From assembly GCF_003334305.1 (NCBI RefSeq), contig NZ_QOWS01000019.1: a DNA stretch of 64,000 bases. The stretch is one strand, 5' to 3'. Position numbers: made by a program. Source of the DNA: Escherichia coli. GTDB lineage: Bacteria > Pseudomonadota > Gammaproteobacteria > Enterobacterales > Enterobacteriaceae. Positions 45,001 through 51,000 of this stretch are shown in pieces (position 1 is the stretch's first letter; each line of letters opens with the position of its first letter).

Positions 45001-48000
45001 AATAAAGTTAATTTCGAAACACTAAAATTCATAATGCAAACAGGGACGCACCGCTAGCAGCGCCCCTAGCGGTATCCTATAAAAAAACACACCGCGCCGC
45101 TAGCAGCCCCCCCTAATATAAAATAATGTTTTTTATAAAAATAGTCAGTACCACCCCTACAAAACGGTGTCGGCGCGTTGTTGTAGCCGCGCCGACACCG
45201 CTTTTTTAAATATCATAAAGAGAGTAAGAGAAACTAATTTTTCATAACACTCTATTTATAAAGAAAAATCAGCAAAAACTTGTTTTTGCGTGGGGTGTGG
45301 TGCTTTTGGTGGTGAGAACCACCAACCTGTTGAGCCTTTTTGTGGAGTGAGTTAAATTATTTACGGATAAAGTCACCAGAGGTGGAAAAATGAAAAAATG
45401 GATGTTAGCCATCTGCCTGATGTTTATAAATGAGATCTGTCTGGCCACTGATTGCTTTGATCTTGCAGGCAGGGATTACAAAATAGATCCTGATTTACTG
45501 AGAGCAATATCATGGCAAGAATCCCGTTACCGGGTTAATGCCATCGGTATTAATCCGGTAACGGGATATGGCAGCGGACTGATGCAGGTAGATTCCCAGC
45601 ATTTTAACGAACTGGCCCGCTACGGAATTAAGCCGGAACATATGACAACAGATCCCTGCATGAACATTTATACCGGTGCTTATTATCTGGCAATAGCATT
45701 TAAAAAATGGGGCGTCACCTGGGAGGCCGTTGGTGCATACAATGCCGGATTCAGGAAAACCGAACGCCAGAACCAGAGGCGTCTTGCCTACGCATCAGAT
45801 GTTTACCGGATTTATACCGGGATAAAAAGCAGTAAAGGTATCCGGGTTCCGACCACGAAGAAATCACTTTCCCAAATGAACAGTGTGCAGAACAATTAAT
45901 ATTGTATACATTGTCAAATACCGGTTATGCCGCGACAGCGGCATGGAAGGCCACACACAAAAATATCATATGAGTGATAATGCTGACTGGCCGAAGCCCC
46001 GCAAAGCGGGAACCCATATTATATATATCCGGTAACTGCGTAGCCTCCTGCCAGACCATTTTTCGCGGGCACAATATTTACAGACTACCGAAAAGCCAGT
46101 TGATGAAATTGAGGCATATCAGACGACATAGCAATGCCGAAGGATGACAATATAAGTAAAGCCCCGAAAATTTTTCGGGGCTTTACCTATATTATCACGA
46201 CTTCCACTCCCTGAACTGTTCGGCAATCATCCATAATGCTTTGTTGATTCTTATATCACCATCAATACCTGTAATGGCTCTTGTCCTGGTATTTTTCCCG
46301 GAGGCACTTCGCCCCGATAATCCACCTTTTATCATATTCTCCTGAACCCGCTGCCAGGTTGTCCAGAGATCGTTCTGTTTATCCTCCCGACGACGGGGAG
46401 TAATTATCTGTTCAGGCGTCACCGGCGTTTTATTTTCATCTTCATACCTGACCATCAGTGCAGCTCTGCCAAATAAATGTTGCTCGTCACTGTTAAGATG
46501 AATTTCTTTCATCGCCTCCATATTATCAGTGACCTTATCAAAGACACCGAGCACTTCATACGCTCCCTCGATAACCTGCCCGACAATATCACCTTTATGT
46601 GGAACGCGGATTTCGCCAAAATTATTTCCGCACACCAGGCCATTTGTGCAGACAAAACGAAAAATTCCGGGGATCATCTGATAACTGGATGAACCATCAT
46701 GTGAATTAAGCAGGATAATTTCAGGAACTTCCTGCCCGTTAATATGCCCTTCCCTGCGAAGACGTAACATATGTTTACTGTATTCGCGACGTCCCAAATC
46801 ACGAACCCGACTCTGACAGGCAAAGAATGGCTGGAAACCTTCATCACGTAACTTATTGATGATATTGATTGTTGGAATATACGTATAACGTTCACTCCGG
46901 GACTCATGTTTATCACCGGAAAACACCGAAGGCACAAACTGCATTAATTCATCATCCGTTAAAGGACGTTCACGGCGGATGGAATTATACCGACCAAAAC
47001 GGGAAGCTAATCGCATAACAGCTACTCCTTTATGAAAGAATAAATTTAATAAAAAATTTTTCCGCTTAATATCATCCCTCCCGATCTCCATTAACAAGAT
47101 TGCAACAATCAGGAGGGATATTCATCACATCCGGTCAGCAGATAGCCCGGATATCGAGGCCGGTACGCTTAATCTGACGCAGGAACTGTTTGAAGTGATC
47201 GGCTTCCGCAATGTTGATATGGCGGAACTGCGTATCCACACCCCGGCTGAGCGCATAGCTATAGCTGAAGGCCATCTTTTCCGGGTGGCTTTTGCGATAT
47301 TTTTTCAGCTCAGTCAGGCTGCTGAATTCCAGGACGTCCCACTCTTCCCCGGTGTATTTTTTCTTCCCGGCAACAAGAAGCGTGTACGACGCGATGTTAA
47401 CGTGGATATTTCGGGTACTCATCCTGCTTTCTCCTCTCTCTGGTTTTCAGCCCCCATCATCTGTTGAGTTTCGGGAGCCGCGGTTTTGACGTTTTGCGGG
47501 GACCTGCCGTTTGTTCCCTCCGGTATTCACCATCACCTGTTTGAGAACCTTCGCCGCAAGGGGCATCACTGCCACGGCCTGACGCACCTGTCCTGGGCAG
47601 AACGCAAAATTTTTTACCGGGTTTTGGGTAAAAAATTTTGTGGGCTGTTCATTTACCCTGGACAGTCAGTGCGGCAGGTTGTGGCTGTATCAGCTCCCGG
47701 CGACAGGGGCTTAAACAGGTGAATGGCACCGGACACAACAACGGGCAGGAACCCGCCGCAACGACGTGAAGCGCGGTTTGCGAAACGGCGTTGCCCCTTA
47801 CATCCCGGCGGCCTTTTGCCGGGATGCCGGGAGCGCAGGCCACGGCGCGACAGAGGCGGCGCGACCGGAACGGTCGCTGCAAGCCCGGGGTTTCGCGTCA
47901 GGGATGGAAGCCCGCCAGGGCGGAGACAGCTCCGCTGGCTCCGTTCACGACAGCCCGCCCCGCCAGGGGGACGCCCGGAAAAGGCATAAGCAGGAGAACA

Positions 48001-51000
48001 ACAAAACAGACAATAATCAGGGCAGCAGTAATCAGAGTCAGAACAGGAGGAAAAAGAGAATAATCAAAGGGAAGGTGATGTGATTTCTGACAGGTCATAA
48101 ACAGAGAAGGCGGGGGAAAAGAACGGGCGCCGCAGGCGCACGTTCATCCCCGTTCCCGGAGGGAAACGGCCTTCCTGGCAGTCTGGTTGTTCATGCCCGC
48201 ACAATGCCAGCAAGGAGAAAGGGGCCACCGGCGAACCAGCAGCCCCTTTATAAAGGCGCTTCAGTGCAGTCAGACCAGCATCAGCCCTGAAAAGGCGGGC
48301 CTGCGCCCGCCTCCAGGTTGCTACTTACCGCTGGATTCGTAAGCCAAACTTGCCGTAACCTCCCTGTATCCGTCCTTCAGCCGGACTTCGCACAGACGAT
48401 TCCGGGTCAGGAGTGTGAATATTAACAACGTGCAGCACACGATTAATACGCACCAGATAAGGGCGTTTCCCGGTAGTTTCATGGTTTACTCCTCCTTGCA
48501 TTAAGCACGGTAAGAGGCCATACTGTTGTTGATCAGACATACAGGGGGCCTCGTGGGTTAATGAAAAATTAACTACGGGGCTTTCTGCCTTCTGCCACAC
48601 AACACGGTAACAAACCACCTTCACGTCATGAGGCAGAAAGCCTCAAGCGCCGGGCACATCATAGCTCATATCCCTGCACGCTGACCACACTCACTTTCCC
48701 TGAAAATAATCTGGTCGTTCAACCAGTTCACGGGTAATCCGTGTGATTATTGCCGCATCACGCTGCCTCCCGGAGTTTGTTCGGCACCATCCACCGCTCC
48801 ATCTCACGGACAGCATGACCGGCCTCTCTGGCTGCCAGACTGGCTTCCGCGATAACCTGCCAGAATGGCATATCCTGCCACTGCCAGCGTTCCATTCCGG
48901 CCAGTGACGGAAAACGCTCGCCCCACTGCCAGAACAGGGGTTCCAGGTCATGCTCTGCCACCCGGTCACTCCAGCGTGCATGCCAGCTTCCGACTGTTTC
49001 CGGTGAATGAAATGCCAGTTCGATTTCAGCCTGAGCAACCAGCACCTGGTACGCACGGGCTTTCTGCTCTGCCTCCCTCGCTTGCTGGCGGCTGTACTTC
49101 TGCATGACCAGCGCGGATTTATGGCGACTGCGTTCCCTGACACGAAACCGCACCGACGGGAACAAGCGTTCTGCTGCATCGCCGGGAAGGGGAAGGAGGC
49201 AGACCTCGCCCTGTGTTTCAATCAGCACATCGATGGCACACAGCCACTGAAGACGGTTGCCGTGCAGTTCTTCTGCGGTCAGGGACGGCATGAAAAATCG
49301 CAGGTCAGACAGCGAAATCCGGCGGCTTCCGTTCAGACAGCGGAAAAATGCTCCCGCATACGGATATTCCGCCAGCGTGTTTCCCTGATGGCGGCGTTTT
49401 TCCGTCTCCGCCACCGCCCGCCATGCGGCCTGTTGCTCTGTGCTGAGGGGAACCAGTGCCCGTGAACGTGCGTTCATACCTGACCTCCTTCCGCCATCAG
49501 GATATGGATGATGTCGTTAACGCTGTACCCCTGCGCATCCAGTGACGCCGCCAGTGCCAGTGAATGGCTGACTGCTTCCGGTGCAAACCGCCGCTGTACC
49601 TGAACCACCGCAAACGGCTCACCACCGGCATTCACCAGAACCAGCACCCAGACCTGGGAGACATCACCCGGTGAACATAACGCCAGGTGAAAACGTTCGT
49701 GGGCAGGCGTGAAACGGACCTGGACGGGGAAAAAGCCGCCGAACTCGCTGCCGTACTCGCCATTCATCGTCCAGTTGTCCGGCGCATCCAGTTCCCGCAT
49801 CACGGCGTGTGTCAGCTCACGGCGTTCATCACTTCCGGCAGCCCTGATATCTTCATATTCCTGTGCGTTCATGGTCTGTAATACATTCAGGGTCAGTTCA
49901 GTTTTCATCACGGTATCTCCCTTGCTGCTGCCCCGTCTCCGGCGGGGCGGTGTGGTTGTTCATCAGGCGGCATCAGCCAGGTTATCGGTGCGTTCAGTGG
50001 TATCCGTCTGTGGATGTGGTGCACACATCCAGCCAGGCACCCAGCGGTTGTCTTTCATATGGTGCTCTGCATGTTCAGCCGCATCACCTTTCTTCATCTT
50101 CTCTGCATCCCGTGCGGCACCGGACAGTCCGGCATCATTCAGAGCTGCGATAATCTGCGGCTTTTTCAGGTGTCCGAAGAAGTTTGCTTTTGTCGGCTGC
50201 CACCAGTCACGCATGTGAAAACCGATGGCGCTCTCCAGCGTGTCCAGCGGGCTGCGTGACGTGTGACCACACTCGCGGGTCTGAACGCCGTGGATGCTGC
50301 ACGCGGTGCAGAAACTGAGCAGGGATAACAGCACCTCCTGACTGAGTGACAGGAACGTCGTCATGTCCCGTGACCATCCCTCCGGTAACAGGGCCGCAAG
50401 ACGGGCTTTTTCTGCCATCATCGCCATGAACGCGGCACCTTCCTTCCCTGACGGCGCATCGCTGGTCAGCGAATAATGTTTACATTCCAGGCTGATTTGT
50501 GCTGGTTTACTGTACGCTCCGCTGCCAAACACATTCAGGCAGAGCGTCCATGCCAGCAGTGCCAGGGATTTGTCCGGTTGCTGCATGAGTGCCGCCTGGA
50601 CTGCCAGCGTGCGTTCGGAAGACATTTTCGTCAGCAGTGGCAGACTGATTTCCTCCACTGATGCTTTCTCCTGCACCTGTTCCGTGCGGTCAGCGTCGTC
50701 AGCCGCGTCATCCTCGCTGCGCAACTGCACACCACGCTGGACACACACATTACCGTAACGCCAGGACACCACCACACCGCTTCCGGTACGCATCTCCGGC
50801 GTCCACGCTCTGACCTTCGCCATGCAGCGCATCAGCTTCATTTCTGCTTCCAGCAGGTCGGATTCCTCACACTGGTTTTCCAGCGCGTCGTAACGCGTCA
50901 TCAGTTCGTTCAGGCGTTCTTCTTCCGCCTCCGTCAGCACCGCGTCCGGCTCCGGCAGACAGCGGTATGTTCCGGCATCCTCACGGCACTCACCGACAGG

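Follow-up and report, generated by a model that had tools for sequence, protein, structure and literature searches.

The window analysed here, a 64,000-nt stretch of Escherichia coli DNA (one strand of contig NZ_QOWS01000019.1, assembly GCF_003334305.1), is the leading region of an IncF plasmid, and it carries three copies of an Frpo/ssi promoter unit, each followed on the + strand by a tract rich in A and G. This compositional feature is real and statistically clear, and the element that it adjoins is a known one. The tracts consist of degenerate triplet or hexamer repeats, are hypervariable in length, most likely do not encode protein, and keep only their composition and their strand polarity, i.e. 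A/G on the transferred strand and U/C in the RNA of leading-gene sense. We tentatively favour, with somewhat less than even confidence, the view that the Frpo/ssi repeat unit has in each tract its variable outer edge, a fast-evolving array of degenerate triplet repeats that would act as a non-coding, hypervariable and structure-poor spacer or insulator between the terminal hairpin of the upstream operon and the promoter module.

Position, composition and polarity of the tracts

Tract A lies at 47979–48110, tract B at 53369–53510 and tract C at 56626–56745, all three on the + strand; the original prediction had placed them at 47987–48110, 53377–53520 and 56633–56745. Over the latter intervals the purine fraction is 0.73, 0.71 and 0.76, respectively, compared to 0.476 for the whole window. 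We also scored segments by giving +1 to each purine and −2 to each pyrimidine, with 200 block-shuffles of the window as the null. The three top purine segments of the window were 56624–56725 (tract C; score 48, 82% purine), 47977–48127 (tract A; 43, 76%) and 53367–53491 (tract B; 35, 76%), the top score per shuffle having a mean of 25 and a maximum of 39 (n = 200). Purine fractions and segment scores thus bear out the places and the strand that had been proposed. The description of the tracts as almost pure A/G was overstated: they are 71–82% purine (46–56% A, 8–14% T), and their longest pure purine runs measure 32 nt (56650–56681, the longest of the window), 16 nt and 14 nt. As to the claim that the sequence differs in each copy, it holds for the distal part, which is position-specific and goes with the upstream operon, but not for the beginning: the first ~20–50 nt are homologous between copies, the shared start extending over ~45 nt in copies A and B and ~20 nt in copy C. 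The prediction had missed the triplet-repeat arrays, the length hypervariability and the open frames present on both strands.

The sequence GTGGGGTGTGGTGCTTT, which we take to be the F nic sequence, occurs on the + strand at 45290–45306 as an exact match, with no mismatch. The + strand is therefore the transferred strand (T-strand) and the template of the leading genes, in line with known leading regions (PMC11541004). It follows that the tracts do belong, as proposed, to DNA that enters as a single strand, and that it is their purine-rich strand that is transferred.

As also proposed, each tract follows a copy of a repeat, of which there are three, ~545 nt long. Folding of the + strand as single-stranded DNA (ssDNA) gives, at the start of each repeat, a hairpin of ~318 nt (fold z = −6.3 to −8.0). 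All three hairpins are on the + strand: copy A has a Frpo1-type hairpin, a class-1 single-strand promoter, at 47468–47785 upstream of ygeA/ygeB (whole-fragment z = −6.3), copy B a Frpo2-type hairpin at 52859–53176 upstream of ssb, and copy C a third Frpo-type hairpin at 56118–56434 upstream of the operon comprising a 76-aa gene, DUF3560 and a methyltransferase. The three are 88–94% identical to both Frpo hairpins of plasmid F, which identifies the repeat modules as Frpo1, Frpo2 and a third class-1 single-strand promoter. Masai and Arai reportedly dealt with Frpo/ssi single-stranded DNA promoters, elements of IncF and IncI1 leading regions, in 1997. Frpo1 and Frpo2 of F have been described (PMC9849209), as have the class-1 single-strand promoters (PMC12672017), and this literature covers the hairpins, the transcription start sites and the role in priming (PMC9849209, PMC12672017).

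The hairpin is followed by a conserved, GC-rich module of ~190 nt, located on the + strand at 47786–47978 (copy A), 53177–53368 (copy B) and 56435–56625 (copy C). The three modules are of the type that we call alpha, as judged from the alignment of the three copies together with the alpha/beta classification of 132 unique sequences (copy A) or the comparison with F (copies B and C). The order of elements is the same in all three window copies: hairpin, module, tract, GC hairpin, then the end of the upstream operon. The first ~110 nt of the module, which contain a 26-mer at 47860–47885, are common to all types; after this common part, plasmids have one of two unrelated cassettes, alpha or beta. 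The alpha cassette (~85 nt; 47895–47978 in the window) is found in the window and F type, and the beta cassette (~170 nt; e.g. L007:15115–15255) in many IncF, IncI1 and Klebsiella types. The fold of the beta module is a domain of three hairpins; of its 41 consensus pairs, 10 display compensatory changes on both sides, and the three hairpins are kept between E. coli and Klebsiella in spite of indels of 1, 2 and 4 nt. Such compensated pairs and such indels indicate that the beta module is structural and not coding.

The window modules and tracts matched no Rfam family (E ≤ 1), nor did those of L007 and L011 (gathering score) or the beta domain; in the vicinity of the modules and tracts, the only Rfam matches were to sok, AS-pc01, FinP and traJ_5.

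Repeat make-up and variability of the tracts

For the comparison with related plasmids we used plasmid F, four other IncF plasmids, a Klebsiella-type IncFII(K) plasmid, an IncI1 plasmid and another F-like plasmid, to which we added 120 metagenome contigs containing the conserved 26-mer of the module; in all, this gave 132 unique post-module sequences.

In the window, Tandem Repeats Finder reports (CAGTAG)2.5 at 53431–53445 in tract B and (AAG)9.7 at 56653–56681 in tract C. Among the plasmids and metagenome contigs, (CAGTAG)n has between about 1 and 13 copies, variation is also seen in (GAA/GAG)n, (AAC)n and (ATC)n, and one 18-nt duplication is present, so that copy number differs between close relatives, as in a simple-sequence repeat or variable-number tandem repeat (VNTR). 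Tract length accordingly spans 101–140 nt in the alpha-C class, 142–175 nt in alpha-B and 137–206 nt in beta-B, and is 127 or 145 nt in alpha-A. These length differences are nearly always multiples of three: only 3 of the 42 length classes are out of register within their class, two of them through 1-nt distal changes and the third through a +4 difference in a single contig. The beta-C sequences form two sub-families, each congruent modulo 3 internally but differing from each other.

The composition of the tracts follows the same register. Position 1 is A in 71–81% of cases (T in ~1%, C in 11–18%), position 2 is a purine in 91–94%, and position 3 is any base (A-R-N, with R a purine and N any base), over 30–60 consecutive triplets. 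By permutation, period 3 gave p = 0.004 for tract A, p < 0.002 for tract B and p = 0.14 for tract C; periods 2, 4 and 5 gave no signal in tract composition. Slippage of triplet repeats derived from a common ancestor accounts for both the indels in multiples of three and the single register.

The tract is also more variable in sequence than its neighbour, with 17.8 variable sites per 100 columns compared to 9.5 in the adjacent module; the hairpin columns, which were badly aligned, were excluded from use. Selection maintaining purines was tested for through the transition/transversion ratio and was not retained: the tract has no excess of transitions, its ratio being 1.28 compared to 1.82 in the module.

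Several of the sequences compared are interrupted in or next to the tract. A group II intron (with the ltrA reverse transcriptase) sits at the junction between the beta cassette and the tract (...GCCGAAGGTGCGC|GTGCGACAGG...), at the identical site in two Frpo units of one Salmonella plasmid (L009:2140–4900 and L009:16010–18500) and in five other unique sequences. Among the metagenome contigs, both alpha and beta, three different insertions, each opening with CGTAA(G/C)CG...CATTTAAA, break the tract at different points, and one copy is cut off by a tetR/Tn10-like sequence. From these interruptions inside the tract by elements resembling insertion sequences (IS) or tetR/Tn10, it appears that the tract tolerates or attracts the insertion of mobile elements. 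Tolerance of both IS-like and intron insertions speaks, like the high variability, for low constraint.

Conservation in related plasmids

Plasmid F has tracts after both of its Frpo copies, at 63328–63491 and 57970–58090 of NC_002483 (complement strand), with scores of 41 and 67. In the Klebsiella IncFII(K) type, the hairpin is only ~72% identical, yet a tract with a purine fraction of 0.82–0.84 stands at the equivalent place. Considering all 132 unique post-module sequences, a purine segment scoring at least 20 is present in 79 and one scoring at least 30 in 53, while a pyrimidine segment scoring at least 20 is present in none. Alpha modules, the window and F type, have a strong tract (scores of 31–67), and beta modules of the hok and methyltransferase sides have a moderate one (20–28); all three or four copies per plasmid keep the tract. 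It is thus conserved in place and polarity in IncF plasmids, although a strong tract is not universal. The original prediction would have fallen had position or composition not been conserved in relatives; among IncF plasmids both are, the tract being weak in IncI1 and in one IncF subtype, beta-C.

A more distant F-like plasmid combines a diverged Frpo-like hairpin, whose 5′ arm is purine-rich, with a beta-like module (L013:8600–9300). The stretch that follows this unit is weakly purine-rich, and the other unit of the same plasmid has (CAGGAA)4. A scan of genome contigs with the end of the alpha cassette yielded four contigs and no more, which were short, irrelevant or contaminants.

Predicted structure of the tracts and of their flanks

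Folded as ssDNA, tracts A, B and C have a mean unpaired probability of 0.58, 0.66 and 0.84, respectively, compared to 0.33–0.36 for their flanks; random window segments put in the place of the tract give 0.41–0.44, with a maximum of 0.53. Unlike the tract, the neighbouring module and the Frpo hairpin are strongly structured. The suggestion that the strand bias may affect secondary structure is therefore supported at the level of the predicted ssDNA fold, where the tracts are less paired than both flanks and random segments. As for the loading of SSB, the protein that binds single-stranded DNA, also raised in the prediction, an A-rich strand is a poor rather than a good substrate of SSB.

On the side of the upstream operon, each tract adjoins a GC-rich hairpin. 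That of copy A (48121–48145, − strand) is followed by a T-run and is terminator-like; it lies upstream of tract A in gene sense, beyond the end of the hok mRNA, and gives the terminator scan match at 48139–48127 (GCGCCTGCGGCGC + CCGTTCTTTT). The other two, read from the sequence, are GGGGCGGCGCGTGAGCGCGGCCCC at 53520–53543, between the end of the methyltransferase gene (53619) and tract B, and the hairpin at 56748–56791, between the end of a 60-aa gene (56867) and tract C. The tract RNA of leading sense contains 46–56% U, 20–27% C and 13–20% G, with a C/G ratio of 2.1 (A), 1.1 (B) or 1.3 (C). A promoter scan found no + strand promoter at the three copies.

Coding potential

The A-R-N pattern leaves frames open on both strands in the same codon register. 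The − strand open reading frames (ORFs) encode 66, 59 and 52 aa (47898–48098, 53288–53467 and 56545–56703), with a hydrophobic stretch and a common end, PFPGVPLAGRAVVNGASGAVSALAGFHP. The + strand ORFs are rich in Lys, Asn, Ser and Arg; one is annotated in RefSeq (WP_015056142.1, at 53114–53533), and its counterpart in F is WP_000388237.1. The strand called by the Prokaryotic Genome Annotation Pipeline (PGAP) differs from plasmid to plasmid. In the window, RefSeq places hypothetical-protein coding sequences or pseudogenes across modules and tracts at 47723–48044 (+) and 53114–53533 (+), and a 'single-stranded DNA-binding protein, frameshifted' pseudogene at 47447–47652 (−), which falls inside the Frpo1 hairpin. 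These calls have the look of artefacts produced by the repeat and by an A-R-N register without stops.

We assessed frame conservation in 95 classified sequences. In these, beta-type modules offer the + frame neither ATG nor GTG nor TTG, and the frame meets a TAA in beta-C and ends at a very variable position; the − frame has ATG only in the hok-side tract and TTG or GTG elsewhere. No Shine–Dalgarno sequence was seen for the − frame in the window sequence. The − frame is moreover broken by a stop in the 107-nt beta-A variants and by a frameshift in L009, and in beta-C the tract lies outside it. A start, ribosome-binding site and stop conserved together, as expected of a protein-coding gene, were found on neither strand. 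Substitutions at positions 1, 2 and 3 of the + register number 15, 21 and 27, which is not significant (chi-square ~3.4), the events being partly shared between classes. Indels in threes and a period-3 composition are present, as in coding genes, but are equally explained by triplet-repeat slippage. None of the six ORFs matched an NCBIfam family. The tract is therefore most likely non-coding.

Possible roles of the tracts

The spacer or insulator role that we tentatively favour builds on the observed position, composition, polarity, repeat nature and hypervariability of the tracts, on their low predicted structure and on the lack of consistent coding signals. A stretch made up only of purines could not pair with itself while the DNA enters as a single strand and would stay an unstructured linker, which would keep the folded promoter module apart from the neighbouring hairpin. 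At the RNA level, read-through from the upstream operon would produce, directly after the hairpin, 100–200 nt of untranslated, unstructured, U/C-rich and G-poor RNA. Copied from a dA/dG template, this RNA would form a weak hybrid, and the weak hybrid and the pyrimidine-rich RNA would together favour transcript release, either in the manner of an extended U-tract or through Rho loading. Transcript release would in turn insulate the next promoter hairpin from read-through.

Several points weigh against this view. We infer the linker and insulator roles, termination and insulation entirely so. The Frpo hairpin is very stable, and a flanking linker may be irrelevant to its folding. In beta-C and IncI1-type copies the tract is weak (scores of 10–18 over ~30–45 nt), and because these modules presumably still work, a strong tract is not required. 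Of the three GC hairpins, the terminator scan called that of copy A and neither that of copy B nor that of copy C. The tract RNA of leading sense would make a mediocre Rho utilization (rut) region, being U-rich and not C-rich, with a C/G ratio of 1.1–1.3 in B and C. Finally, the coherent A-R-N register and the near-absence of T at its position 1 are not accounted for by a mere spacer.

The main rival, which we regard as rather unlikely, is that the tracts are neutral simple-sequence DNA: an ancestral triplet microsatellite, duplicated with the Frpo unit, would be purine-rich through its own slippage, and the tract would mark the fade-out of gene conversion between repeat copies. Indeed, the tract is the fastest-varying part of the unit (17.8 compared to 9.5), it shows no excess of purine- and pyrimidine-preserving transitions, its length is made hypervariable by the slippage of repeat units, and it tolerates insertions and truncations. 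Its weakness or shortness in IncI1 and beta-C points the same way, as does a proximal part homologous between copies next to a position-specific distal part; the single register and the constant polarity would simply reflect common ancestry. Less easily reconciled with neutrality are the persistence of purine-richness beyond the point at which the tracts can be aligned (in the Klebsiella type and in L013, which has (CAGGAA)4), the near-absence of T at one register position and the presence of the tract in all three or four copies per plasmid. A less probable proposal, to which we give little credence, is that the tracts are elements read in triplets in one frame, whose copy number would tune early establishment, either as (A-R-N)n platforms (on ssDNA or + sense RNA, for Hfq or another protein) or as hypervariable small ORFs overlapping the promoter modules, basic or hydrophobic depending on the strand. 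Taken by itself, a platform on + sense RNA or entering ssDNA on which Hfq or another triplet-reading protein would be sequestered, or recruited beside the single-strand promoters, appears improbable. The register (A in 71–81%, purine in 91–94%, then any base, over 30–60 triplets) is that of the A-R-N motif, reportedly assigned to the Hfq distal face by Link et al. in 2009, the tract is predicted to be unpaired, and tract B is followed on the + strand by a hairpin and TTTC; but a + strand transcript is without evidence and the scan found no promoter for it, the motif is broken by a C at position 1 in 11–18% of triplets, many functional modules have a weak tract, purine/pyrimidine identity shows no purifying selection, and triplet-repeat ancestry gives an identical pattern. 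Least probable of all is that the U/C-rich tract in read-through RNA pairs with the purine-rich ribosome-binding region past the hairpin and so silences the downstream gene unless transcription starts at the single-strand promoter. Purine-rich 5′ leaders do lie just past the hairpins (47418–47462 is pyrimidine-rich on the + strand), and the duplex energy of copy A beats random window segments (fraction 0.007), but copy C does no better than such segments (0.73), the partners are at least 500 nt apart, and pairing is no better than with composition-preserving shuffles (fractions of 0.18, 0.25 and 0.10). Given this equality with composition-matched shuffles, we rejected specific anti-Shine–Dalgarno pairing as a mechanism.

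The two coding proposals also appear improbable. According to one, the − strand, in leading-gene sense, encodes small hydrophobic membrane peptides that combine a variable N-terminal transmembrane-like segment from the tract with a C-terminus from the module. The three ORFs (66, 59 and 52 aa) have PFPGVPLAGRAVVNGASGAVSALAGFHP as their common end, their in-register translation is a clean hydrophobic stretch, indels come in multiples of three and PGAP calls these frames in some plasmids. Against this stand the restriction of ATG to the hok-side copy, with no Shine–Dalgarno sequence seen, the frames broken in the 107-nt beta-A variants and L009 and the exclusion of the tract in beta-C. In beta modules, which are structural, the C-terminus is wholly different; third codon positions would be 71–81% T and would vary least, contrary to what is expected of coding sequence; one variant has an Asp inside the 'membrane' segment; and no family matches. 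The other proposal, which we find quite improbable, is that a short and strongly basic protein of low complexity, with a tail rich in Lys, Asn, Ser and Arg, is encoded on the + strand, antisense to the leading genes. Its register is coding-like, with positions 1 and 2 constrained, position 3 free and T so rare (~1%) at position 1 that no stops arise, substitutions rise from position 1 to position 3 (15/21/27), and the frame, annotated by PGAP, is open in ~90% of alpha-type variants, mostly from an ATG at the start of the alpha cassette. Beta-type modules, the majority of the sequences, have no start, and beta-C has a TAA; some alpha copies have ATA or ACG in place of the junction ATG, the three window copies do not share their upstream starts, L035 has an in-frame TAG, L118_+3333 has a frameshift, and the stop position differs widely. 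In addition, the promoter scan found no sigma-70-like promoter on the + strand, many changes are non-synonymous, the position bias is not significant and no family matches.

Comparison with known elements

The repeat modules resemble the Frpo/ssi class-1 promoters in having an equivalent ~320-nt hairpin, of the kind that restores −35 and −10 boxes on the transferred strand, and in their positions upstream of ygeA, ssb and a third operon, but the tract is outside the ~328-nt element, about 200–280 nt 3′ of the hairpin on the transferred strand. Neither its position, outside the hairpins, nor its sequence conservation, twice as variable as the module, makes it a part of Frpo, and since it is upstream of the promoter in transcription terms, it should be absent from Frpo-initiated transcripts. 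The papers searched on Frpo/ssi and leading regions mention no purine or polypurine tract, although the article by Masai and Arai of 1997 and those on ssi of ColIb-P9 may have noted the flanks.

Like VNTRs, the arrays have copy numbers that differ from one near-identical plasmid to the next, as for (CAGTAG)n, (AAG)n and (AAC)n, but they lie outside any recognised gene or promoter spacer, have no evident phase-variation read-out, and are degenerate arrays in one register over 100–200 nt. With rut regions and extended U-tracts, the tract RNA would share its untranslated, predicted unstructured, pyrimidine-rich and G-poor character and its place after the last gene and GC hairpin of an operon; it differs in being U-rich rather than C-rich (C/G of 1.1–2.1), and one of the three hairpins scores as a terminator. 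The triplet pattern is identical to the (A-R-N)n motif of the Hfq distal face; natural Hfq sites, however, comprise a few triplets in 5′ leaders or small RNAs, whereas the tract has 30–60 triplets on a strand without a known RNA. The 32-nt pure (GAA/GAG) run of copy C recalls the polypurine tracts that form H-DNA, and longer runs occur in F (85% purine over 121 nt), but over most of the tract a pyrimidine breaks the purines at intervals of a few bases.

If the spacer or insulator role that we favour is correct, the working unit of a zygotically induced operon would be larger than the Frpo hairpin and would run from the terminal hairpin of the previous operon through a structure-free purine linker and a structured accessory module to the promoter hairpin; such natural boundaries would matter when 'Frpo' cassettes are deleted, transplanted or engineered. 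If the tracts are neutral, they would be a compositional curiosity in a well-studied region. Their function is possibly nil. The triplet register and the hypervariability are their sole surprising aspects. Whatever their role, the (CAGTAG)n and (GAA/GAG)n arrays provide hypervariable markers of length within a region of IncF resistance and virulence plasmids that is otherwise conserved, and fine-scale typing of plasmids could make use of them; the arrays also explain the inconsistent RefSeq 'hypothetical protein' calls on either strand.

Other features of the window

Over the query, the window is 100% identical to the E. coli IncF plasmid NZ_CP033091.2 (pS88-like family), and related places number 13,709, spread over 3,763 of 5,426 complete E. 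coli genomes. According to the RefSeq annotation, traC through traM are on the − strand below 45,000 and an SLT transglycosylase gene is at 45390–45899 (+); the leading-region genes, all on the − strand, are DUF932, ygeA, hok, psiA, psiB, ParB-like, DUF905, ssb, methyltransferase, DUF3560, DUF1380 and antirestriction.

A G-rich stretch of 71% purine occurs at 57992–58134 (+), upstream of the antirestriction gene, where F-type plasmids have a class-2 single-strand promoter. The surrounding class-2 region (57930–58340), in which we looked for a similar tract, is G-rich, folds worse than shuffles (z = +2.35) and abuts an IS. Because an IS110-family transposase gene (58337–59308) comes next, the class-2 promoter may be disrupted in the plasmid analysed here.

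Pyrimidine-rich + strand stretches lie directly 5′ of hairpins A and C (47418–47462 and 55953–56031). In mRNA sense these are purine-rich leaders and ribosome-binding regions, and they mirror the tracts across the promoter unit. Just 5′ of the third Frpo hairpin, at 55868–55969 (+), the Rfam family AS-pc01 (antisense RNA of pHK01) matches with 105 bits compared to a gathering score of 79, and this match recurs in L007 and in the Klebsiella-type L011. Since it has the sense of the transferred strand, antisense RNAs of + sense can exist in the leading region.

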